From IMG/VR virus record IMGVR_UViG_3300032330_001391, positions 53,103 through 117,102 of that record: DNA of 64,000 nt; one strand, given 5' to 3'. Both the position numbers and the translations under genes were made by a program. Shown in pieces: positions 15,183 through 53,237 of the stretch. The notes beneath the pieces are model-generated. The model was not told where the DNA came from. It made no database searches and saw nothing but the letters and a program-made list of their open reading frames with translations. Source of the stretch: a virus. Its lineage: Duplodnaviria > Heunggongvirae > Uroviricota > Caudoviricetes. The stretch's first letter is position 1. Each line of letters starts with the position of its first letter.

Positions 15183-15479
15183 TTATATATTCTTTATATT
15201 GAACTGATCCAATACACTTTGTATTGATTTCAATTGTTCAAAGAAAAATCCAACCTCATCATCACTTTCAAAGGAACCTTTACTATCTACTTCTTTAAGA
15301 CGTTTATTTGAATGACTAATAATATCTGATACTTTATTTAGATATGTCATATATCCAGCTAATATTTCAGTTTGCTCATTAACTATATCTTCTAATTTTT
15401 CATTTTTACGTAGAAGATTATAAGTTGTATAGCTTAAAATTAAGATAAACGCGATTAAAACAACTATTAGTACTATCAT
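15183..15479 (-). CDS. small membrane-anchored protein
   Basis: 98 aa, N-terminal hydrophobic helix (MIVLIVVLIAFILILSY), then coiled coil. Confidence 0.4.
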   Translation of the reverse strand: MIVLIVVLIAFILILSYTTYNLLRKNEKLEDIVNEQTEILAGYMTYLNKVSDIISHSNKRLKEVDSKGSFESDDEVGFFFEQLKSIQSVLDQFNIKNI

Positions 15480-16252
15480 ATATTATTCAATAAATTTTTA
15501 AGTCCCTCGGATTTTATACCTCCTAAAGCTTTAGTCTTAGGTGATCTATTTTCTTTGTTCGATTCCAATGTAATATTTTTCTTTGGCTTCTCCACATTTC
15601 CTTTAAATTTAGGTAACCATTCTCTTTCAAATTCAATCCTGGATGCCATTAAATCTGCTTGATGTAAAATATAAGGTAAAGATGTTCTTGGTTTTTGCTC
15701 TGGCATGAACGCTGTTAAGTACTTTTTATTAGATTCATCATACAATCCATCATGGGTTTGTATAGCTACCATTTCATTAAAAGAATACTTAATATTATGA
15801 GCCTGAAGCATATATAATCCTCTATCTGGAACTGATGCAAACGCTAAATTACTATTAAACATATAATCTTCTCCTAATTTATCTTTACGCCATTGATCGG
15901 TTTGAGGAATATATGATTCATATTGTTCATCTCCTATTTTACCTAGATCATGATTTAAAGCTGAGAATACTAATTCTTCAGTAGAATATGTAGAACTATC
16001 TACTCCCATTTGAGCCCAAACATTATTTAATTTAAGGGCACAATCTACTACTCTTATAACATGATCTACATATCCTCCAGGGAAAGCACTATGATATTCC
16101 TTTTTATAAGAGGCGGGCATCATCATAATACGTTCTGAGTATTTATTATAGAATCCTTTTAACTCAGACCTACGAGGTTCTGAGATGTATGCGTCTATTC
16201 GACTCATTAAAATACTCCAATTATCTTGGATTTGTTCTGCTGTTAAATTCAT
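15476..16252 (-). CDS. HD-domain phosphohydrolase
   Basis: 258 aa. H..HDLGK motif (ALNHDLGK) and downstream His/Asp residues typical of HD metal-dependent phosphohydrolases. Confidence 0.6.
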   Translation of the reverse strand: MNLTAEQIQDNWSILMSRIDAYISEPRRSELKGFYNKYSERIMMMPASYKKEYHSAFPGGYVDHVIRVVDCALKLNNVWAQMGVDSSTYSTEELVFSALNHDLGKIGDEQYESYIPQTDQWRKDKLGEDYMFNSNLAFASVPDRGLYMLQAHNIKYSFNEMVAIQTHDGLYDESNKKYLTAFMPEQKPRTSLPYILHQADLMASRIEFEREWLPKFKGNVEKPKKNITLESNKENRSPKTKALGGIKSEGLKNLLNNI

Positions 16253-23718: not shown

Positions 23719-23720
23719 TG

Positions 23721-23792
23721 CAGCACGGACAGGATTCGAACCTGCATCTCCTATCTACAATGATAAGGCGTTACCAGTTACGCCACCGTGCT
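23721..23792 (-). tRNA. tRNA (anticodon region TTGTA; candidate Thr-TGT) with unusual 6-nt anticodon loop
   Basis: Acceptor AGCACGG/CCGTGCT, D-arm GCGT-AACTGGTA-ACGC, T-arm GCAGG-TTCGAAT-CCTGT. Anticodon stem best folds as CTTATC/GATAGG closing a 6-nt loop ATTGTA. Confidence 0.45.
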
Positions 23793-26565: not shown

Positions 26566-26588
26566 AACTTTTATTTTAATATTTTGAG

Positions 26589-26662
26589 TGGACCCTGCAG
26601 GGCTTGAACCTGCGACCCCCTGATTATGAGTCAGGTGCTCTAACCAACTGAGCTAAAGGTCC
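26589..26662 (-). tRNA. tRNA-Met/Ile2 (anticodon CAT)
   Basis: GGACCTT-TA-GCTC-AGTTGGTTA-GAGC-A-CCTGA-CTCATAA-TCAGG-GGGTC-GCAGG-TTCAAGC-CCTGC-AGGGTCC-A folds as a canonical cloverleaf. Confidence 0.7.
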
Positions 26663-26952: not shown

Positions 26953-28035
26953 TTATTCAAAATCTCTTATACATATCACTTTAGGAAAACGAGGTACACC
27001 ATCTGTTGTCAGCTCAAAATACTTCACTGTAGCCATTTTACCTATTAAACCGTCTCTGCTATGCCATAAACGCTCAATATATTCCCAATCACCATTAACC
27101 GCAGCGTCAAATGTTTTATCATTTATTTTAAAATTAAGACGTCCCACTTTTCCTGTTAGATTTCCTTTCCCTTCTTCAACACCTAATATTTCAAACTCAC
27201 CATCAACAAATGATTTATGTTTTAAAAGTGATTTAGAACGTTTATTCTCATACAATCCATCTAAACGAATTATTTGACCTTCATATCCCCATTCAATATA
27301 ATCTTCATACCAATCATTTACTATATCTTTACCTCCACAAACATCTGTTCTAACTCGTTCACAACAATCAGGTAAATTCATTTCAACTAACGCTGTATAT
27401 CTTTGTGTAAATGTACCTGAATGGCTTGGTAAATCATAAATCCAATATTGAATTTTCTTAGACGTTTCTAAGTCTGCTTTAGTTGGTTTTGTTTTACGAA
27501 CACAAGAAATAATTGTATTAAAATCAGCTACTTCCCCATTAACAAATAACTCACCATCTAATATTAAATCAGGATTCTGTTCAAATAATGGTTTAAGTGC
27601 TTCAAATATATGCGGGGCAGAAATGATTGGTTTACCGTTACGAGACCACATCCCGTTAGTTTTAATAATGCATCTAACACCATCAAGTTTTGGTTGGCTG
27701 TAAACAGGAAATGTAATTTTATCCTTATAATCATTGTAATCATGAGCCAGCATTGGTTTGAAATGGACTGGAGAGTCAATGTCACTAATATTCTCAAATG
27801 AGCCCGCTTCTTTACGTTTAGTCCACATTGCTAATGCTTCAGCACTTGCTTGTTCAGCAGGATTAGTAGCATTTTTCTTACCAACATTTTTTGCTTCACA
27901 ACACGTCCATTCAGATAAGGTTTTAACTCCGTCCGTGTAACCAGATATTGTTCTAAAACAATTATCTTTCACTTCAACTTCCCACTCTAATGTTTTCCCG
28001 TTTACAGACCGTTTAAATAGTTTAGGTAGTCTCAT
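26953..28035 (-). CDS. ATP-dependent DNA ligase
   Basis: 360 aa. Nucleotidyltransferase motif I KxDG (SQPKLDGVRCII) and downstream motifs (DGELF, EGQIIRLD, LLKHK) typical of small ATP-dependent DNA ligases. Confidence 0.7.
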   Translation of the reverse strand: MRLPKLFKRSVNGKTLEWEVEVKDNCFRTISGYTDGVKTLSEWTCCEAKNVGKKNATNPAEQASAEALAMWTKRKEAGSFENISDIDSPVHFKPMLAHDYNDYKDKITFPVYSQPKLDGVRCIIKTNGMWSRNGKPIISAPHIFEALKPLFEQNPDLILDGELFVNGEVADFNTIISCVRKTKPTKADLETSKKIQYWIYDLPSHSGTFTQRYTALVEMNLPDCCERVRTDVCGGKDIVNDWYEDYIEWGYEGQIIRLDGLYENKRSKSLLKHKSFVDGEFEILGVEEGKGNLTGKVGRLNFKINDKTFDAAVNGDWEYIERLWHSRDGLIGKMATVKYFELTTDGVPRFPKVICIRDFE

Positions 28036-28424: not shown

Positions 28425-28460
28425 ACGTCTTAAAACTTGGGTAGCCAAATTTACCTTTTA
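28425..28460 (-). promoter_or_regulatory. conserved phage early promoter
   Basis: actaaatatacgtcttaaaacttgggtagccaaattt. Confidence 0.55.
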
Positions 28461-28871
28461 CACAGTGTGTGGTACAATCCATCTAACACAATCTTGAGGT
28501 AATCGATGTATGTGGAGGTAATTGTTGATGTAGCCCATCATATTAGCTGCACCAACCGCATTAGCTGAATGTATTTTAACGGGTACTACTTTACCTCCAT
28601 TCAACCACTGCTCAACCAACCACTTAGTACAATCCATACCTGTTTTCTCAGTAATGTTATTATAATCTAATGTGTAGTTAACATAAACGTTTGTATGCCA
28701 CTCTCTCATAGCTGAATCACCTAAGTCGTGGTCTAATGATATTAGAGCTATATTGTCTAATCCAATTTCAGTTACTTTAGTAATAAACTCATCATAGTTA
28801 CGAACAACAATCCAGTCAGATTCAATTGGTGTTCTAACATCATCTAAATAAATGTAATATAATTTTTTCAT
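28458..28871 (-). CDS. hypothetical protein
   Basis: 137-aa ORF. Confidence 0.4.
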   Translation of the reverse strand: MKKLYYIYLDDVRTPIESDWIVVRNYDEFITKVTEIGLDNIALISLDHDLGDSAMREWHTNVYVNYTLDYNNITEKTGMDCTKWLVEQWLNGGKVVPVKIHSANAVGAANMMGYINNYLHIHRLPQDCVRWIVPHTV

Positions 28872-37876: not shown

Positions 37877-38108
37877 CTTCTAGTTTTATCAATTCGTTAA
37901 TTAATTCTATAGACCATCCACTTGCTACTAATAATCCTTTCATAGCACCCATAAGGTCATATATGTTTGTATCCCACGGTAACTCTGCTGAGAATTTTTT
38001 ACCGTGAATTTCAATTGTTAGTATTGTTGGATTCTCTTTCATACTTATGTAATGTGAATTCATTATTGTTATAGATAATATAAGTGTTATTTTCAATCCA
38101 ATCCCCAC
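37869..38108 (-). CDS. small hypothetical protein
   Basis: 79-aa ORF. Overlaps the 5' end of the next gene in another frame. Confidence 0.3.
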   Translation of the reverse strand: MGIGLKITLILSITIMNSHYISMKENPTILTIEIHGKKFSAELPWDTNIYDLMGAMKGLLVASGWSIELINELIKLEDE

Positions 38109-38739
38109 AATTTATATATGTTACATCCTCTATCTTCTTTATCACTGGAAAATGTATGTGTCCACATATAACATTATTACAATTTCTCTTTTTTCCTTGA
38201 TATATTATTTGGTCTTCAAATGATGTGATAAATTTCACTGCTCCTTTTACTTTATCTTTTAGATATTTGGATAACGACCTCTTATATCCCAGTTTTTTTA
38301 AAAATCTATCAAACATAATAGCTATATCATACCCAACACTACCAATAATCCCTAACCATTTTAATTTAACAATACCATCATACAAATCTCCATGGGTTAT
38401 GAATATGTCTTTGTAAACATACTCATTATGAAATTCAATATTACCAAACGATATCTCACCATATTGTCTCAAAAATTCATCATGGTTTCCAGGGATGTAT
38501 ATTACTTTAGTTCCGTCCTTTGAATATGATAATATCTTCCTTAAGACATTAGTATTAGACTGAGGCCAATATATTCTTCGTTTTAATAACCACCCATCAA
38601 TAATATCACCAACTAAAAACAAATATTCTGGTTCGTATTTCTTTAATACTGTTAATAGTTCTTTTGGATTGCTACCTTTAGAACCCAAATGTACGTCAGA
38701 TATGAATAACGCTTCAATTTTTATTGTACTCTTTTCCAT
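38011..38739 (-). CDS. calcineurin-like metallophosphoesterase
   Basis: 242 aa. MPP motifs D-x-H (SDVHLG), GD (VGDIIDGW), GNHDE, plus downstream His motifs. Confidence 0.6.
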   Translation of the reverse strand: MEKSTIKIEALFISDVHLGSKGSNPKELLTVLKKYEPEYLFLVGDIIDGWLLKRRIYWPQSNTNVLRKILSYSKDGTKVIYIPGNHDEFLRQYGEISFGNIEFHNEYVYKDIFITHGDLYDGIVKLKWLGIIGSVGYDIAIMFDRFLKKLGYKRSLSKYLKDKVKGAVKFITSFEDQIIYQGKKRNCNNVICGHIHFPVIKKIEDVTYINCGDWIENNTYIIYNNNEFTLHKYERESNNTNN

Positions 38740-38795: not shown

Positions 38796-39410
38796 TTAAT
38801 CCCACCAGCCTCTAATGTCTCGATTCAGTAACTTAAATAGTAAATCTTGAGCTTTCATCTCATTATATCTCCCTACATTCATAGCAAGGTGTCGCTTATA
38901 ATCATCTCCATCTAATTTAAAGACCTGTAATGACTTATCAGCTAATACTTTTCTAACACTGGCTTTATACTTGTTAAGATAATCATCAAAGTTTTCAGAT
39001 GTAGTTTCTGTGTTCATTTCATAGCTATCTGGTCTATCAAGGCACTCAACGAATGTAGTCTTGATATCATAATAATCTGCATATTCCATTTGATAGTACT
39101 CATCTCGAACTTTCTCAATAAGCCTAGCACACAACCTCATTCTTTGAGCATCATATTGTGCTTGTGTATGTCTATCACGCTTACTAATATAAGCCGCTTG
39201 CTTAATTAACTTGAATTTGAGTACTTCCCAAATATAATAGTCATCCCAATCTCTATCTTTCCATATAACAGGAAACCAACGAATCAAGTTTTTAACACTT
39301 AATGTGAAGTTTCTTAATCTATAGCCTATTAGATCCCAATAGATGTCATCAAGCTTATCACCAAGCGCTCTTGGGTGCATACATTTTAGTATTTGGTTTA
39401 GTTTCAACAT
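38796..39410 (-). CDS. hypothetical protein
   Basis: 204-aa ORF. Overlaps a 66-aa K/R-rich ORF (39358..39558) by 53 nt in another frame. Confidence 0.4.
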   Translation of the reverse strand: MLKLNQILKCMHPRALGDKLDDIYWDLIGYRLRNFTLSVKNLIRWFPVIWKDRDWDDYYIWEVLKFKLIKQAAYISKRDRHTQAQYDAQRMRLCARLIEKVRDEYYQMEYADYYDIKTTFVECLDRPDSYEMNTETTSENFDDYLNKYKASVRKVLADKSLQVFKLDGDDYKRHLAMNVGRYNEMKAQDLLFKLLNRDIRGWWD

Positions 39411-40586: not shown

Positions 40587-40844
40587 TTATTCATTATTTG
40601 GATTGTTTAAGTATTGAATAATATAATTTATATCTTCATCCCATACTTCTCTATCTGGAAACATAGCACCATAGCCTAACCCATGTGTTATAGCTTTTCT
40701 AACTTGCTCTTCAGTGTACATAGTTTGTTTAAGCTTATAAAATTCAGCGTCAATATAAAAAGCAGCATCATCTATTGCTTCATTAATTCCTTTATATTCA
40801 TTTAAAGAATTATGTATTTGTTCTATGATTTCTTCTTTAGTCAT
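40587..40844 (-). CDS. small hypothetical protein
   Basis: 85-aa ORF. Confidence 0.35.
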   Translation of the reverse strand: MTKEEIIEQIHNSLNEYKGINEAIDDAAFYIDAEFYKLKQTMYTEEQVRKAITHGLGYGAMFPDREVWDEDINYIIQYLNNPNNE

Positions 40845-41590
40845 AATTTACCTACTTTTACTTTTTCATTTGAATTAAATATAAGATATTCTTTTGAAGT
40901 TTCCAAACAATCAATGTAATAATATCTTCCTCCTGTAGACTTACCCTTTGCATCTATACTATCTACGGCTGTGTGCCCTACCACTTGAATTACCTTTTTA
41001 CGAAGTGTTTTGTGATTAGCAAATTGTAGAGAACGTGGCCTAATCCAAATTGGACTTTGTTGTACATCATCACCATATGGATCTAATCCAGCAAACTTAA
41101 AACTCTTTGGTTTATAATACCATAAGTCGTTTAGTTGGTCACTTATAGTTTCAACACTCCATCCACCATATCCAAATACGTGATTCATAAACACACTACT
41201 AACTCCAGCATGAGTGCAAAGTATATCATCAAACTGATATGCCATTTGTAAATGGTGTCTGTTTTCGTTTACTAAATGTTCAATATTAAATCTAGCTCCT
41301 GCCTGATAACCTGAGTATTGTTGATTTCCTATTTCTGGAAAGTAATGGAAGTCGTGATTACCTATTAACATAATGACCTCTGTCTTATGTTGGTTATCTT
41401 GACCATCATTAGTAAAAGCTGTTTCTTTATACTCAATAATATCTTTAAAATTCTGCATTTGTATTACAGCAGGCATATCATAATTGTCAAAGTAGTCTCC
41501 AATAAAGATAACCTTATCTGGATTTTCTTTGGCTACTATTTGTTTCCAAATATCTCTACCATGTGTATCACCAAGTATAATCGTTTTCAT
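40841..41590 (-). CDS. metallophosphoesterase (PP-lambda/Pnkp-phosphatase-like)
   Basis: 249 aa. GDTHGR, GDYFDNYD, GNHDFHY motifs of calcineurin-like phosphatases. Confidence 0.6.
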   Translation of the reverse strand: MKTIILGDTHGRDIWKQIVAKENPDKVIFIGDYFDNYDMPAVIQMQNFKDIIEYKETAFTNDGQDNQHKTEVIMLIGNHDFHYFPEIGNQQYSGYQAGARFNIEHLVNENRHHLQMAYQFDDILCTHAGVSSVFMNHVFGYGGWSVETISDQLNDLWYYKPKSFKFAGLDPYGDDVQQSPIWIRPRSLQFANHKTLRKKVIQVVGHTAVDSIDAKGKSTGGRYYYIDCLETSKEYLIFNSNEKVKVGKL

Positions 41591-41608
41591 ATTATTTGTT
41601 TTTTATTA

Positions 41609-42748
41609 TTAATGTGAATCACCCACATCATGTTTTTCTCCATAAATTAAATAGTCTGGATTAATTACTTTAGCTACTTTATGTCTATCTCCACTTATAT
41701 GTTTAATTACAATACCTTCGTGTGGTACTTTGGTTCCTTCAATAAAGTTATTGAATGTGAACTTATCTTGAATTTCTTGAGACCAATTGCCTTCATACAA
41801 AATAGGTGTCACAGGTAAATTCAACTCATACTTTAAAATATTGAGCTTTGTACTAACATCACAATAATTTCCATCCATGGTAACATCAAAACCAACAAAC
41901 TCAATACCTTTCAAACCATAATCATAATTTTTTTGGATTCCGGCTCCATAAATTTCTCCATAAATAACAATTCCTGATCCAAGATCAAGACTATACTTAC
42001 CTGATTTAAAGAACTCCCACAACAATTCTCTGATTGCATATTTTTCAGCAATAGTTTTCCAAACATCAGTTGAATAAAATCCTTGTGAATCAGAACCTTT
42101 TTCTACATTATGTGAACCATAAACATACTCAAATTCAACCCATTTATTTCCAAAGAAACGTCTTACTTTATCCCATAATGATAATTTATTTTTTCTAACA
42201 ATACCATAACGAGCATTTGTACCATGTACCTTGCGAGTGATTTCAACCACATCTTCTTCTGTAAACATTCCTGGAACATTCCTTGAATTAGGAAATTTAT
42301 AGTAAATACCAAAGTTGGGATTTTGATGGTATTTAATCTTTTTACCTGATGATAATTGTACTTCTACAGCTGGTGGTTCATATTTGAATATCTTTAACAC
42401 ATCCATCATATCCTCTCCTTCATCCCATTTAGTATTAGCATAACCAGTTGCCTTAGTAGCCATACTTATAGGTATAATTAAACACTCTGAATATGTTCCC
42501 CTTAATTTAACAGTACGTACACGTTGACCTTTACGTAAGTAATTAGTTACATTCATTGCATCTGAAAGCTCTTGAGGTATAACAGCATCTGTAGTTGCTA
42601 CTACAACTAATCCACCTTCAGCATATTGTCCTTTTTGTATAATACAATTCCATCCACCAACAACTGCTTGTTCAATATTATCTGCTCCAGGAATTGGTTT
42701 AATTTCGTTTATACGTGCTACATAGCACACACTATTTTGATTTTCCAT
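41609..42748 (-). CDS. RNA ligase, Rnl2-like nucleotidyltransferase with N-terminal OB/tRNA-binding-like domain
   Basis: 379 aa. Motif I KVHGTNARYG (compare T4 Rnl2 KIHGTN). N-terminal ARINEIKPIPGADNIEQAVVGGW resembles EMAP/Myf tRNA-binding OB folds. Confidence 0.55.
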   Translation of the reverse strand: MENQNSVCYVARINEIKPIPGADNIEQAVVGGWNCIIQKGQYAEGGLVVVATTDAVIPQELSDAMNVTNYLRKGQRVRTVKLRGTYSECLIIPISMATKATGYANTKWDEGEDMMDVLKIFKYEPPAVEVQLSSGKKIKYHQNPNFGIYYKFPNSRNVPGMFTEEDVVEITRKVHGTNARYGIVRKNKLSLWDKVRRFFGNKWVEFEYVYGSHNVEKGSDSQGFYSTDVWKTIAEKYAIRELLWEFFKSGKYSLDLGSGIVIYGEIYGAGIQKNYDYGLKGIEFVGFDVTMDGNYCDVSTKLNILKYELNLPVTPILYEGNWSQEIQDKFTFNNFIEGTKVPHEGIVIKHISGDRHKVAKVINPDYLIYGEKHDVGDSH

Positions 42749-42749
42749 G

Positions 42750-43016
42750 TTATTTGTTTTTATCTATTAAATTAAAGTCAGTACAATAAATTCTAACTTC
42801 TTCTATTTCAGTTTCTCCTGTTTTCCCATCCAGTACATGATATTCAATATACCCTTCATAATCATCAGGATACTTAGAAACATAAGGATACCAAACACCT
42901 CTTTTATTTTCTGGACCATAATAGTCATCTAATGCATCTATTACTCCATCAAATGTATTAGATGCAACAATTGGTTTTTTATATTCAGGGTGGTATGCTA
43001 CAAAAATGTATGTCAT
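42750..43016 (-). CDS. small hypothetical protein
   Basis: 88-aa ORF. Confidence 0.35.
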   Translation of the reverse strand: MTYIFVAYHPEYKKPIVASNTFDGVIDALDDYYGPENKRGVWYPYVSKYPDDYEGYIEYHVLDGKTGETEIEEVRIYCTDFNLIDKNK

Positions 43017-47687: not shown

Positions 47688-48698
47688 TTATCGTTTTAAA
47701 AATTTTCGTCCTGATTTTACTTTATCTCTCCAATATTCTAATAAATCGTTCATTGTTTGTTCAAATGTATATTCTGGTTTCCATCCTGTATGATTTTGGA
47801 ATTTAGTTGTATCTGGTATTTGTAAGTCAGCATCAATCGGCCTGAGGCGTTCAGGATCAGTTACTATTTCAATATTAGATACGGTTGATTTACTTATTAA
47901 ATAATTAAGCATATCTGATACTTTACATGTGTAATTTCCTCCAATATTATAGTATTCACCAGATGTTGGGTTAATTGTTACTAACATATGATATGCTTTA
48001 ACAGCATCTCTAACGTCAGCATATGTTCTTAATGATTCAAGATTACCAACATATATTTTTGGTTCTTGTAATCCTGATTCAATCATTGCTATTTGTTTAG
48101 CAAATGTTGATTCTGAAAATACATCTCCTCTTCTAGGACCAGTATGAGTAAACATACGGGTTGTCATAATTGTCATCCCATATGCCTCAGCGTAGTATCT
48201 ACCTATTAGATCAGTTCCTACTTTTGAGATAGCATATGGTGACGCTGGATGGAATGTACATTCTTCATTTATAGGAAGTTTTTCTTTTGGTACTCTACCA
48301 AATACTTCACTTGAAGCACAAACATGAATAATAGCATTTTTATAGTTTGATCGCCTAATAACCTCCAATAGATTAGTAGTTCCTAAAATATTTGTTTGAA
48401 GTGTTTCAATTGGTGAATCAAAACTTGTTTGTGGATATGACTGTGCTGCTAAATGAAATACATAATTTGGTTTTGATTTATCTATAACTACTAATAGTGA
48501 GGCTAAATCATTTAAATCACCATATACTAATTCAATGCGATCTTTTTTATTTATTTCATCAGATAAATGTTCAATATTTTCTAATGAGTCATTCCATCTA
48601 CATAATCCATAAATTTTCCAATCAGTATTAGCTAATAAATAATCAGCTAAATGTGAACCAACCATTCCTGTAATTCCAGTAATTAATACTTTATTCAT
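47688..48698 (-). CDS. gmd: GDP-mannose 4,6-dehydratase-like (Gmd/heptose dehydratase family) extended SDR
   Basis: N-terminal Rossmann LITGITGMVGSHLADYLL, catalytic region, and overall Gmd-like layout. ORF track extends to 48770, overlapping the upstream gene. MNKVLITG is the likely start. Confidence 0.7.
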   Translation of the reverse strand: MNKVLITGITGMVGSHLADYLLANTDWKIYGLCRWNDSLENIEHLSDEINKKDRIELVYGDLNDLASLLVVIDKSKPNYVFHLAAQSYPQTSFDSPIETLQTNILGTTNLLEVIRRSNYKNAIIHVCASSEVFGRVPKEKLPINEECTFHPASPYAISKVGTDLIGRYYAEAYGMTIMTTRMFTHTGPRRGDVFSESTFAKQIAMIESGLQEPKIYVGNLESLRTYADVRDAVKAYHMLVTINPTSGEYYNIGGNYTCKVSDMLNYLISKSTVSNIEIVTDPERLRPIDADLQIPDTTKFQNHTGWKPEYTFEQTMNDLLEYWRDKVKSGRKFLKR

Positions 48699-48699
48699 T

Positions 48700-49674
48700 T
48701 TATGTTGTGTATGGGGCTTTATTAATTTTAGAAATATACCAATCAATTGTTTCTTTAATACCTTCTTCAAAAGTATAAGATGGTTTAAATCCTAATTCTG
48801 TTTGAATTCTTTCTGTACTTACAGCTCTAAAAGGTATTGTTGTTGGTTTTGTTTCGTCCCAGATTACTTCTGGTGTTTCACCTGTAACTTTTAAAATTGA
48901 ATTCACAATTTCACCAATTGTAATTCCACCACCGTATCCTAAATTGTATGGCTTCATTGACTCTCCATTTTCCAATATTAATAACGCTCCTTTAACTACA
49001 TCTTTAACATATAAGAAATCTCTAACAACATCTGGACTACCCCAAACAACGAATGGATTTTCTTTACTTAAATGTCTTTTAATAAGTGCTGGAACAACAT
49101 GGCATGTTTTTAAGTCAAAATTATCATATGGTCCAAATATTGCGGTACATCGAGCTAATGCTATATGCAGTCCTGAAAATTTAGATACATGTTCCATAAG
49201 TTTTTCTCTATATCTTCTAGCCCATCCGTATCCATAATATGACTTATAAGGCTCATCAACCCAATACTCATCTTCAGTTAATGGTTTTCTAATATCAGGA
49301 TATCCAGTAGAACTGTTTAAATCAAGAAACTTTTTAACACCTGTTTTAGCACATGCTTCTAATACATTACCTATTAAAGTTAATTGTTTTAATGATATTT
49401 GAATATCAGTTGGTACTGTAGATGGGTGTGCTACCTGTCCACCACAATGAATTACATATTCTGCTCCTTCAACTAATTTAATACAATCTTCTAATTTAGT
49501 TAGATCTATATTTTCATAAATTTCAATCCCATCCTTACTGACCTGTAAAGGTGAATGATGGGTATGTGTTCTTACTTTAGCTCCTCTTTTTACTAATTCA
49601 AGTAAAAAATGAGACCCAATAAAACCACTACCTCCAGTAACTACAACTGTTTTGTCTTTAAAATGATTTTCCAT
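48700..49674 (-). CDS. NAD-dependent epimerase/dehydratase (SDR; sugar 4-reductase/epimerase candidate)
   Basis: 324 aa. VVVTGGSGFIGSH Rossmann motif, YxxxK-type catalytic region. Confidence 0.65.
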   Translation of the reverse strand: MENHFKDKTVVVTGGSGFIGSHFLLELVKRGAKVRTHTHHSPLQVSKDGIEIYENIDLTKLEDCIKLVEGAEYVIHCGGQVAHPSTVPTDIQISLKQLTLIGNVLEACAKTGVKKFLDLNSSTGYPDIRKPLTEDEYWVDEPYKSYYGYGWARRYREKLMEHVSKFSGLHIALARCTAIFGPYDNFDLKTCHVVPALIKRHLSKENPFVVWGSPDVVRDFLYVKDVVKGALLILENGESMKPYNLGYGGGITIGEIVNSILKVTGETPEVIWDETKPTTIPFRAVSTERIQTELGFKPSYTFEEGIKETIDWYISKINKAPYTT

Positions 49675-49683
49675 ATTTTATTT

Positions 49684-50655
49684 TTAATGATTTATAAATG
49701 CGTTATAACGTTTATCTAAGATTTTTTTATTACTTAAAAACCACTCAGTAGTACGTTTTATACCTTCTTCTAATGATACGGATATGTTAAATCCATATGA
49801 TTTAGCTCTAGTCATATCAAATAAGCGAATTTTATCTCCAGCTGGTTTGTCAGTTAACCATTTAATTTCAAGCGGTTTACCAGCATGTTTAACTACCATT
49901 TCTACAACTTCTTTAATTGAATAGCCTTTACCAGATCCTAAATTAATAGGTTCTGTTATTTTATTTTCAACTGCAAATATCATTCCTAAAGCAACATCAT
50001 CTGCGTGAATAAAATCTCTAATAGTTGAACCATCACCCCATACTTCTAACACATTATTTTCTTGTGCTTTTCTAATTAATGATGGTACTACCATAGCATT
50101 AGCTGGATCGAAATTATCGTATGCTCCATAAACATTAGCTGGTCTTACGATTGATATATTTTTAATACCATATTGAATACCATATGCTTCTGCTTGAAGT
50201 TCACCTATCCTTTTTGCCCAACCTGCGAATCTATCATTAGGAGAAGGAAAAGTATTCCAAACTGTGTCTTCAACAAATACATCAGCAGGTGCATAAACAC
50301 CAACTGAACTAGTATATAGATACCATTTAACTTTTGCTCTGCGAGATGCTTCCATCATGTTAGTATTAAATTGAAGCATAGGTACCATAAAATCAGCAGG
50401 TTGTTCAGCACACATCTTAGGTGAACCTTTAATACCTACTAAATTAAATACATAATCCATTCCATTACAAATTTTTTCACATTGATCAAAATAACGTAAA
50501 TCAACTTTAACATAATTTACTTCATTTGGTAGATCAGATGGTTCTGTAAGATCTGCGATTGTAATTTTGGCTCCTTTTTCTAATAGGAGACTAACTAATG
50601 AGCGGCCAATCATTCCACCCCCACCAGTAACTAAAACTTTTTGATTTTCAAACAT
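49684..50655 (-). CDS. NAD-dependent epimerase/dehydratase (SDR), second copy
   Basis: 323 aa. VLVTGGGGMIGRSL Rossmann motif. Confidence 0.65.
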   Translation of the reverse strand: MFENQKVLVTGGGGMIGRSLVSLLLEKGAKITIADLTEPSDLPNEVNYVKVDLRYFDQCEKICNGMDYVFNLVGIKGSPKMCAEQPADFMVPMLQFNTNMMEASRRAKVKWYLYTSSVGVYAPADVFVEDTVWNTFPSPNDRFAGWAKRIGELQAEAYGIQYGIKNISIVRPANVYGAYDNFDPANAMVVPSLIRKAQENNVLEVWGDGSTIRDFIHADDVALGMIFAVENKITEPINLGSGKGYSIKEVVEMVVKHAGKPLEIKWLTDKPAGDKIRLFDMTRAKSYGFNISVSLEEGIKRTTEWFLSNKKILDKRYNAFINH

Positions 50656-50660
50656 ATTAT

Positions 50661-51278
50661 TTATTTATTAAAAGATACAATAGAATATCTAGGACTCAAA
50701 GCATATTCTTCTACAACACTTACAAAATGAGGAGCTCTAAATACTTTATTATTTAACAATACTACTCGATTAAATTTAGGAAATATAGGCTGACAAAATT
50801 CTTTTTCTTCATGGGATAAAACATTTAAAATTCCTCCCCAATCCCATCTCCATTCTTTATTAACATAGTAAATAAAATTAACTGAGCCCGCGTAATCATC
50901 ATTGTGTGATCGGTAGTAATTATTTTTATCTAATTTGTAACATCTAACATCAAATTCATTTATCACAAATGGAGATACTTGTTTTAATAAAGGAATAAAA
51001 TAATTATTAAAAGTATTTTTAATAAGATCTGTTGATTCTAAAGTTTTAGATCTATTAAATTTAGCTGAATAATGTTCGTTAGGGCGTGGAAGAAATTCAT
51101 TGTCCGATTTTAAAATACTATTATAATGATTTTCTCTAATTTGGTCTATAAACTCCCATTCTTTATTTTGAGAATACGCTTCATTAATCTCATTAGCTAA
51201 TTCTAAGGGTAACATATCATCTAGTAATGAAAACCCATTGCTGTTAAGTTCTTCACTTATTTTTTTATAATTTTTCAT
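50661..51278 (-). CDS. hypothetical protein (possible 2OG-Fe(II) oxygenase fold)
   Basis: 205 aa with an HND...H pattern. Weak. Confidence 0.3.
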   Translation of the reverse strand: MKNYKKISEELNSNGFSLLDDMLPLELANEINEAYSQNKEWEFIDQIRENHYNSILKSDNEFLPRPNEHYSAKFNRSKTLESTDLIKNTFNNYFIPLLKQVSPFVINEFDVRCYKLDKNNYYRSHNDDYAGSVNFIYYVNKEWRWDWGGILNVLSHEEKEFCQPIFPKFNRVVLLNNKVFRAPHFVSVVEEYALSPRYSIVSFNK

Positions 51279-52708: not shown

Positions 52709-53237
52709 TGTAAAAATCTCCGTTTTCTATTAACAATGTTGATTTAGAATCTTCTCTCAATAGTGCCTTTTCAAACGCTGGGAATATTTCTTCTGGTTCA
52801 TTCAGTAATACTACTTCAATATGATCTCTACACATATCTGTAAATGCTTTAGTATAGTCTTGAGTATGTTGAACACCTCCATTTAATGGATTTGTTGATC
52901 CAATAGATGTCCTAATAATAACTCTAGGTTTCATCTGCCCTCTAGACATTAAATTTGCTTTATCTATGTGATTAATCATTTGATTAACAGCACAAATAAG
53001 AAAATCAAATCTAGGATAACATGTCACAGGTACAAATCCTTCAAGGGCTAAACCTAAAGACATTCCCATCTGAACATCTTCAAATACAGGAGTTTCAATT
53101 TTTCTATCATTAGGAATAGAAGATAGTGTGTTAAAAATAGCATTTCCTGAGTATGCTACTGATTGGCCTAAAAATAATACTCTTGGGTCATTGTTTAAAT
53201 ATTCCATTGACCTAATTAACTCGTCTTTATATTTCAT
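52698..53237 (-). CDS. transketolase-like, C-terminal/pyrimidine-binding subunit
   Basis: 179-aa ORF paired by ATG/stop overlap with the N-terminal subunit. Small for a true transketolase half. Confidence 0.45.
   Translation of the reverse strand: MKYKDELIRSMEYLNNDPRVLFLGQSVAYSGNAIFNTLSSIPNDRKIETPVFEDVQMGMSLGLALEGFVPVTCYPRFDFLICAVNQMINHIDKANLMSRGQMKPRVIIRTSIGSTNPLNGGVQHTQDYTKAFTDMCRDHIEVVLLNEPEEIFPAFEKALLREDSKSTLLIENGDFYNDK

Follow-up and report, generated by a model that had tools for sequence, protein, structure and literature searches.

The main finding of this work was the identification of a new and divergent member of the known Rnl5 family of ATP-dependent RNA ligases in a large, uncultured tailed phage (Caudoviricetes; IMG/VR record IMGVR_UViG_3300032330_001391), in a gene setting that is suggestive and as yet unproven. 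The stretch of DNA analysed, hereafter the window, comprises 64,000 nucleotides (positions 53,103 to 117,102 of that record; 30% GC). The ligase gene occupies positions 41609..42748 of the minus strand (379 aa) and is followed by the gene of a stand-alone metallophosphoesterase of the PPP/ApaH/lambda-phosphatase clade (40841..41590, minus strand, 249 aa). A previous sequence-only reading had placed the pair at 40841-42748, with coordinates that proved exact, and had interpreted it as a possible tRNA healing-and-sealing system directed against host anticodon nucleases. The two open reading frames (ORFs) are co-directional. We incline, with moderate confidence, to another reading: the ligase would be the sealing enzyme of a toolkit for RNA breaks, and the phosphoesterase an accessory that shuffles separately and is not its fixed partner.

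A predicted Rnl5-type RNA ligase

For each of the two ORFs, collections of metagenomic proteins contain more than 4,000 homologues (E<=1e-3), and both are therefore real genes rather than chance reading frames; in addition, a 160,908-bp contig carries an identical ligase. No close phage was found in GenBank, where the DNA gave a single 56-bp match and all protein matches fell below 30% identity, and for this reason the gene context was taken from IMG/VR loci.

In the ligase, Pfam recognizes an N-terminal OB domain at residues 10-94 (42467..42721, minus strand; PF21189, PHA02142 OB fold, 6.6e-16) and a nucleotidyltransferase (adenylyltransferase) domain at residues 168-362 (41663..42247, minus strand; PF09414, RNA_ligase, 4e-15). 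Since only 19 residues remain after motif V, there is no C-terminal domain. The protein is matched end to end by the RNA ligase family PHROG 968 (2e-56) and over its full length by NCBIfam TIGR02306, the family of Deinococcus DR_B0094/DraRnl (4e-30), and its best solved relative is NgrRnl of Naegleria gruberi (1e-13 by sequence, 1e-20 by profile and 2e-18 by fold), with a fold match that covers about 390 alignment columns at 22-23% identity. Weaker matches in the fold search were REL1 (8e-7), T4 Rnl2 (7e-5) and T4 Rnl1 (6e-4). The protein is thus predicted to be a complete ligase of the Rnl5 type (DraRnl/NgrRnl), made of an OB and a nucleotidyltransferase domain, despite a motif I that looks like that of Rnl2. 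It had earlier been called Rnl2-like, a name that suits the form of motif I and also the nucleotidyltransferase domain searched alone, whose top sequence match in the PDB is the motif III/IIIa region of T4 Rnl2; the architecture and the whole-protein comparisons, in contrast, are those of Rnl5. An identity as a true Rnl2 was rejected because the Rnl2 C-terminal domain is missing and the Rnl2 model TIGR02307, whose cut-off is 197 bits, gave only a partial match of 21.9 bits (1e-4). An identity as a DNA ligase was rejected as well, with no Pfam DNA-ligase match and with DNA ligases appearing in the fold search only at E>=2e-3; motifs III to V are complete and the protein does not group with DNA ligases. 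Homologues of Rnl5 have been reported earlier in phages of Aeromonas, Caulobacter, Mycobacterium and Sinorhizobium (PMC4408790), and phages of these hosts were among the homologue-bearing groups in our protein search with the ligase.

Conservation of the ligase motifs was judged on two alignments, a divergent one that joins the window ligase to four ligases from phages that share its architecture (23-32% identity) and another of 22 close homologues. The predicted AMP-accepting lysine is K173 of motif I (KVHGTN, residues 173-178; 42215..42232, minus strand), which, like G176, is invariant in the five ligases of the divergent alignment and in the 22 close homologues. Motif Ia (GSHNVEK; 42098..42118, minus strand) carries His213, a position taken by the Arg of SRN in two divergent relatives from phages, L062 and L064. 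Motif III (VIYGEIYG, with E265, followed by AGIQKN; 41945..41968, minus strand) aligns with GEIIG of NgrRnl (Glu227) and with VFGEFAGPGIQKN of T4 Rnl2, motif IIIa (FVGFDV; 41882..41899, minus strand) with FYLFDI of NgrRnl and FYVFDI of T4 Rnl2, and motif IV (EGIVIK, with E344; 41702..41719, minus strand) with EGLVFK of NgrRnl (Glu312). Across the divergent ligases G264, E265, E344 and G345 are invariant, together with K360 of motif V (KVAKVINP, with K357 and K360; 41657..41680, minus strand), so that the catalytic set K173, E265, E344 and K360 is conserved throughout, while F287 and D288 of motif IIIa and both lysines of motif V do not vary among the 22 close homologues.

The N-terminus had been described as OB/tRNA-binding-like, which is a fair description of its fold given the fold-level matches to Trbp111, PheRS-beta, MetRS-C and a tRNA-binding protein. 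The description also agrees with the PF21189 match and with the alignment to residues 13-128 of NgrRnl, which runs on residue for residue to about residue 128 of the window ligase. The domain is, nevertheless, no demonstrated tRNA-binding module. The OB domain of NgrRnl binds the gamma-phosphate of ATP and aids lysine adenylylation (PMC4408790, PMC7261155), with Arg4, Asp53 and Lys121 holding the gamma-phosphate and the second metal (PMC7261155). D54 and K122 of the window ligase align with this Asp and Lys, and a counterpart of Arg4 was not identified in a region where the structural model is weak.

Gene neighbours of the ligase in related phages

The useful result of this work is the pattern seen in the relatives, more than the pair of genes in the window. 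Gene neighbourhoods were compared within a radius of 6 kb in 45 IMG/VR loci anchored on the ligase (62-79% ligase identity, with one at 32%) and in 14 anchored on the phosphoesterase (47-62% identity), after clustering all the flanking ORFs of both samples. Near the ligase, a P-loop kinase of about 130 aa was found in 31 of the 45 loci, as the immediate upstream neighbour in 13 and with one gene in between in 9. This kinase is recognized by Pfam AAA_33 (2e-13) and by the polynucleotide kinase family of PHROG, and its profile matches include a Rhizopus kinase (2e-5) and T4 Pnk (8e-5) as well as PSTK, Pnkp1 and CthPnk. In the alignment with T4 Pnk, the invariant D33 of the kinase falls on an Asp of the RDD motif. 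A second phosphoesterase family (218 aa; PHROG 547, 4e-41; Aquifex aq_1665, 7e-5) is present in 27 of the loci and co-occurs with the kinase (Fisher p=0.007, 45 loci). Arrays of tRNA genes lie near the ligase in 16 loci, with up to 22 genes and, in two loci, a phage tmRNA, and a cREC_REC protein, whose predicted role is in cyclic-phosphate processing (PMC7824862), was found in 13. Among the distant homologues of the ligase, that of the Microbacterium phage A3Wally is embedded in a tRNA array and that of the Caulobacter phage CcrPW lies near a nucleotidyltransferase and tRNAs.

The presence of the kinase, the aq_1665-like phosphoesterase and tRNA arrays beside the ligase supports a role in RNA repair, probably tRNA repair, for this lineage, and the resemblance of the kinase, phosphoesterase and ligase genes to a split heal-and-seal cassette is suggestive. 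The healing-and-sealing proposal is in this sense partly supported: it stands for the ligase lineage, at the level of the clade, and is unproven for the pair of the window. Kinase and aq_1665-like phosphoesterase are both absent nearby in 10 of the 45 loci, so that a 'bare' ligase is not unusual. As had been stated from the sequence, no kinase is visible in the window: there is no Walker A motif among its 111 minus-strand ORFs, and tblastn of the window with the relatives' kinase, the aq_1665-like phosphoesterase and the F19 family found none of them. In about 20 kb of extra flank, likewise, neither this kinase nor the aq_1665-like phosphoesterase was found; the one match was to the P-loop of a clamp-loader-like AAA+ gene, which lies there together with GroEL/ES, PolB, dUTPase and primase genes. 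Hen1 and Tpt1 were not found among the window ORFs scanned.

Examples of the kinase and ligase cassette are found in L006 (5585-7134), L019 (5599-7125) and L029 (4123-5646). The phage tmRNA genes (L009, 6934-7315; L011, 5088-5466) lie 1.7 kb downstream of the ligase, each at the head of a large tRNA array. Another locus (L044, 2665-4661) has its ligase gene interrupted at residue 76/77, which leaves two ORFs that differ in frame, and between the two halves lies a 261-aa ORF similar to homing endonucleases (GIY-YIG-like by eye), with a paralogue just upstream. Since no Rfam intron (group I) was detected in this split gene, it looks like a gene divided by a free-standing homing endonuclease.

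The phosphoesterase and its possible link to the ligase

In the window, an A/T-rich spacer of 18 nt, read from the sequence, separates the stop codon of the ligase from the start codon of the phosphoesterase (41591..41608, minus strand); no terminator-like site was found in it, and its promoter-like matches were no more than expected by chance. This adjacency by itself carries little weight, because all the called genes of the window lie on the minus strand and are closely packed. Among the ligase loci, the family of the window phosphoesterase occurs near the ligase in 11 of 45, upstream or downstream and 2 to 10 genes off, and it adjoins the ligase in only one (L039), with the order reversed. 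None of the 14 phosphoesterase-anchored loci has a ligase within the radius. The arrangement of the window is retained in L061, whose ligase is 98% identical, whereas in L060, with a ligase 82% identical, an unrelated 190-aa ORF occupies the slot of the phosphoesterase. The 88-aa ORF directly upstream of the ligase (42750..43016) is 98% identical in that same locus, and the region around the ligase is therefore sharply mosaic, with a nearly unchanged gene on one side, a diverged ligase and a different gene downstream. Since order and distance vary and the slot has been replaced in L060, the adjacency of the two genes appears to be recent and unstable. The view of the two genes as a dedicated system is not supported by this comparison, for they are adjacent only in the window, in L061 and, reversed, in one of the 45 loci. 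In the 13 loci with a cREC_REC protein near the ligase, the window-type phosphoesterase is absent from the neighbourhood (0 of 13, p=0.02).

A 204-aa protein encoded at 38796..39410, with no Pfam or PHROG match, recurs both near the ligase (11 IMG/VR ligase loci and the window) and near the phosphoesterase (7 loci).

In Pfam the phosphoesterase is recognized by the generic Metallophos model only (3.9e-9), and searches of solved structures by sequence, with the single protein or with a 25-sequence profile, gave nothing meaningful; only the fold comparison placed it. The highest score was obtained with the cold-active phosphatase of Shewanella (19.1), followed by ApaH (16.5), PP5 (16.2), calcineurin (15.8), RLPH2 (15.6), PP1 (15.5), the phosphatase of CthPnkp (14.9), lambda phosphatase (13.9), YfcE (11.7), LpxH (10.7) and Mre11/SbcD (about 9), at 15-20% identity to every solved relative, and the placement by Foldseek agrees with the PPP/ApaH/lambda clade. 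Its former label of PP-lambda-type was right about the clade, as judged by fold, but Pnkp and lambda phosphatase are not the nearest relatives and the Arg of motif II is missing.

Conservation in this protein was judged on 25 homologues and indicates an intact two-metal site. The metal ligands D8 and H10 of motif I (GDTHG; 41558..41572), D32 of motif II (GDYFDN; 41483..41500), N78 of motif III (GNHD; 41351..41362), H127 of motif IV (THAG; 41204..41215) and H206 of motif V (VGHT; 40970..40981; all on the minus strand) are invariant, as is the catalytic H79 of motif III. The PPP signature comprises GDxHG, GDxxDRG and GNH[DE] with His ligands further downstream; in motif II of the window phosphoesterase there is no Arg-Gly after the second Asp, and throughout the family GDYFD is followed by N, S or A, never by Arg. 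In CthPnkp and lambda phosphatase this residue (Arg237 and Arg53, respectively) is needed for the monoesterase activity and dispensable for the diesterase activity, and the enzymes without it (MJ0936, Rv0805 and Mre11) are diesterases (PMC2190708). The histidine of GNH, which has been tied to cyclic-nucleotide phosphodiesterase activity, is kept in the window phosphoesterase, and 2',3'-cyclic phosphates are hydrolysed by both lambda phosphatase and CthPnkp (PMC2190708). The active-site residues therefore hint at a diesterase more than at a phosphatase. It may be that the enzyme can open the ring of a 2',3'-cyclic phosphate yet leave the resulting phosphate in place, in which case no ligatable 3'-OH would be left. 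The family-specific element PIWIRP (41036..41053, minus strand) is also conserved, with W182 and R184 invariant in the 25 homologues, and its Arg, in a presumed phosphate-binding role, may stand in for that of motif II.

The phosphoesterase family comprises 665 clusters (50% identity) at E<=1e-30, and nearly all of the best 150 of them are stand-alone proteins of 230-260 aa. The longer homologues checked for fusion to a kinase or a ligase showed none, only one weak Zn-ribbon extension and one LAGLIDADG insert. The latter, of about 300 aa, lies directly after GNHD in a homologue of 563 aa (P0298) and probably represents an intein inserted into the active site.

Possible roles of the two genes

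By homology to NgrRnl and DraRnl, K173 would receive AMP from ATP, whose triphosphate the OB domain would help to place; the AMP would then be handed to a 5'-phosphate, and the 3'-OH of an RNA would attack, so that a break kept together by a duplex or stem is resealed. Gene context suggests that the substrates are broken RNAs, probably tRNAs. Since there is no kinase in the window, the ligase could seal only breaks with 5'-phosphate and 3'-OH ends, and it may act directly on such breaks, for instance those made by metal-dependent tRNA nucleases; alternatively, the enzymes that heal the ends may be encoded outside the visible region. Toprim (OLD-type) tRNases are known to leave 5'-phosphate and 3'-OH ends, and T4 ligases can reseal a single nick in the stem with no healing step (PMC12445682). 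The phosphoesterase could open 2',3'-cyclic phosphate ends, a suggestion drawn from the chemistry of its family and not from conserved linkage.

Several points weigh against this reading of the ligase as a sealing enzyme with a loosely associated phosphoesterase. The score of the ligase with TIGR02306 (104.8 bits) is below the equivalog cut-off of 151.15, so that it is best regarded, from its sequence, as a divergent member of Rnl5 and as no equivalog under the NCBI rule. Its AlphaFold model is mediocre (pLDDT 65.5), and for this reason no residue-level structural claims were drawn from it. To our knowledge, there is no biochemistry for any phage Rnl5. The physiological role of the family has been called 'uncharted', and the only genetic evidence, obtained with DraRnl, points to 'ribo-patch' repair of DNA (PMC5397189). 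The genome measures at least 160 kb in all, and the rest of it could encode a kinase. Several of the 45 loci are near-duplicates, and the region is co-directional and tightly packed; as the loci are related to one another, the neighbourhood counts do not represent independent events. In addition, the presence of the phosphoesterase near the ligase in 11 of 45 loci is above the expectation for a random position in a genome of 100-300 kb, and the window-type phosphoesterase co-occurs with the aq_1665-like one (10 of 11, p=0.03), so that some functional tie between ligase and phosphoesterase is possible.

The strongest form of such a tie would be a dedicated two-gene unit, in which the phosphoesterase clears the 2',3'-cyclic or 3'-phosphate of a cleaved tRNA and sealing falls to the ligase, with a 5' end that is phosphorylated already or by an enzyme encoded elsewhere. 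We regard this as unlikely. The short spacer with no terminator between co-directional genes, the conserved arrangement in L061, the enrichment and co-occurrence just mentioned and the intact metal site are all in keeping with it, but the adjacency is reversed in the single locus of 45 where it recurs and is gone in L060, no ligase is near any of the 14 phosphoesterase loci and the search of about 84 kb yielded no kinase. Besides, the phosphoesterase lacks the motif-II Arg that CthPnkp needs as a monoesterase (PMC2190708), and its closest structural relatives are the Shewanella phosphatase, ApaH and PP5, not Pnkp. A good deal more plausible, although still somewhat short of an even chance, is that the phosphoesterase acts on a substrate other than RNA breaks and that its position beside the ligase is incidental. 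Phosphoproteins (as for the lambda and Shewanella-type enzymes), dinucleoside polyphosphates or Np4-capped RNA (as for ApaH) and host signalling nucleotides are candidates. The family is abundant, stand-alone among its top representatives and spread over many unrelated gene contexts, and none of the known profiles for defence or anti-defence matched the protein (PADLOC profiles matched neither the phosphoesterase nor the ligase). Fold likeness, however, does not fix a substrate at 15-20% identity with no sequence-level PDB match, and the phosphoesterase is modestly enriched near repair-linked genes.

It is also conceivable, though we consider it improbable, that the ligase serves the DNA metabolism of the phage by sealing nicks with a ribonucleotide 3'-OH, as in RNA-primed or ribo-patched DNA and as has been proposed for DraRnl (PMC5397189), and that the phosphoesterase is unrelated to it. 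For Rnl5 enzymes, RNA is required on the 3'-OH strand only, DNA being tolerated on the 5'-phosphate and template strands, and deletion of DraRnl slows genome reassembly after irradiation (PMC4408790, PMC5397189). Genes of nucleotide and DNA metabolism abound, with thymidylate synthase and an ATP-dependent DNA ligase encoded in the window, and PolB, primase and dUTPase in its flanks. That conventional DNA ligase (26953..28035) is, at the same time, an argument against this reading, and in the relatives the Rnl5 ligase accompanies a Pnk-like kinase, a phosphoesterase, cREC and tRNA arrays, not replication genes, as the homologue embedded in the tRNA array of A3Wally also illustrates. The reading of the ligase as part of an RNA-break toolkit could be carried further, to a whole lineage of large aquatic phages in which Rnl5 does the sealing for a split RNA-repair kit, often located near tRNA arrays. 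This kit would be formed by the mini-Pnk of about 130 aa, the aq_1665-like phosphoesterase and the Rnl5 ligase, joined in some cases by cREC or a PPP-like phosphoesterase. The window phage would then be a kinase-less variant whose PPP-like phosphoesterase and ligase handle another class of breaks, such as the 5'-phosphate stem nicks of Toprim or PIN tRNases, the removal of cyclic or phosphate ends being the task of the phosphoesterase. In this full form we hold the proposal only tentatively and think it rather doubtful.

The Rnl5 ligases are well understood in structure, and the sole genetic clue to their role in cells or viruses points to the repair of DNA in Deinococcus. If true, the split RNA-repair kit would provide the first clear biological function for the family, and the presence of the relatives' ligase beside a mini-Pnk-like kinase, a phosphoesterase and tRNA arrays makes a role in tRNA or RNA repair directly testable. 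The pair of the window, in turn, should not be annotated as a complete system against anticodon nucleases, because its adjacency is unstable, the kinase is missing and the phosphoesterase hints at diesterase chemistry.

Other genes of the window

A cREC_REC protein, predicted to be a cyclic-phosphate-processing receiver, is encoded at 28458..28871 (minus strand; PF20274, 5e-22), 13 kb from the Rnl5 ligase and about 420 bp from the gene of the DNA ligase, just beyond which lies a tRNA-Met (26588..26662). The phage tRNAs on which the sequence-only reading had relied were confirmed, with four in the window. Its HD-type protein at 15476..16252 is supported by PHROG 28876 (3e-11) and by the motif LNHDLGK, but has no Pfam match. 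A tRNA-like gene at 23720..23792 was left unassigned by ARAGORN, with a two-base 'tg' anticodon, and scored 46.7 bits with the Rfam tRNA model; it possibly has an unusual anticodon loop or is a degenerate tRNA. A second metallophosphoesterase, unrelated to the first and LpxH/YfcE-like, is encoded 2 kb downstream of it (38011..38739, minus strand, 242 aa; Metallophos_2, 1.4e-12), with NCBIfam and PHROG matches that are weak and mixed (LpxH, YfcE, PdeM and PHROG 547). At 47688..51278 the window carries auxiliary metabolic genes unrelated to the ligase and phosphoesterase, a series of sugar-nucleotide genes and one further gene, which encode a GDP-mannose 4,6-dehydratase, two epimerase/dehydratases and a 2OG-Fe(II) oxygenase.

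Comparison with known systems

Of the characterized ligases, NgrRnl (PDB 5COT) and DraRnl (DR_B0094, TIGR02306) are the closest counterparts of the window ligase, since they share an OB domain at the N-terminus and the C-terminal nucleotidyltransferase domain with no C-terminal appendage, and E265, E344, D54 and K122 align with Glu227, Glu312, Asp53 and Lys121 of NgrRnl. The window ligase differs from NgrRnl by a His in motif I (KVHGTN) where the latter has Asp172, and it has an insertion of about 25 aa between motifs I and Ia. The K-x-H-G-x-N form of motif I, which typifies T4 Rnl2 (PDB 2HVQ), is shared with that enzyme, and the stretch VIYGEIYGAGIQKNYDYG...FVGFDV aligns with VFGEFAGPGIQKNVDYG...FYVFDI of T4 Rnl2 (residues 96-132). 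The Rnl2 and Rnl5 families both seal nicks in duplexes, and the activity described for Rnl5 is the ATP- and Mn-dependent sealing of 3'-OH(RNA)/5'-PO4 nicks (PMC4408790, PMC5397189). Unlike T4 Rnl2, the window ligase has an N-terminal OB domain in place of the Rnl2 C-terminal domain.

The phosphoesterase differs from the phosphatase domain of CthPnkp (PDB 4J6O) and from lambda phosphatase (PDB 1G5B), to which it has 16-19% identity and no sequence-level match, by the absence of the Arg equivalent to R237 and R53, respectively. It is, moreover, a stand-alone protein, whereas in CthPnkp the domain is fused to a kinase and to a ligase-like domain. With respect to the known RNA repair clusters, namely T4 Pnkp with Rnl1, bacterial Pnkp/Hen1 and Runella HD-Pnk with its ligase, there is no kinase in the window, and the ligase is an Rnl5 and not an Rnl1 or a Pnkp ligase-like domain. 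The phosphatase of T4 Pnkp is of the HAD type, while the enzymes of the window and of its relatives are metallophosphoesterases. They differ likewise from the phosphoesterase of Runella HD-Pnk, which is of the HD type (PMC6097658). What is common to all of these clusters is the logic of kinase, phosphoesterase and ligase, and the relatives of the window phage encode all three as separate small neighbouring genes.

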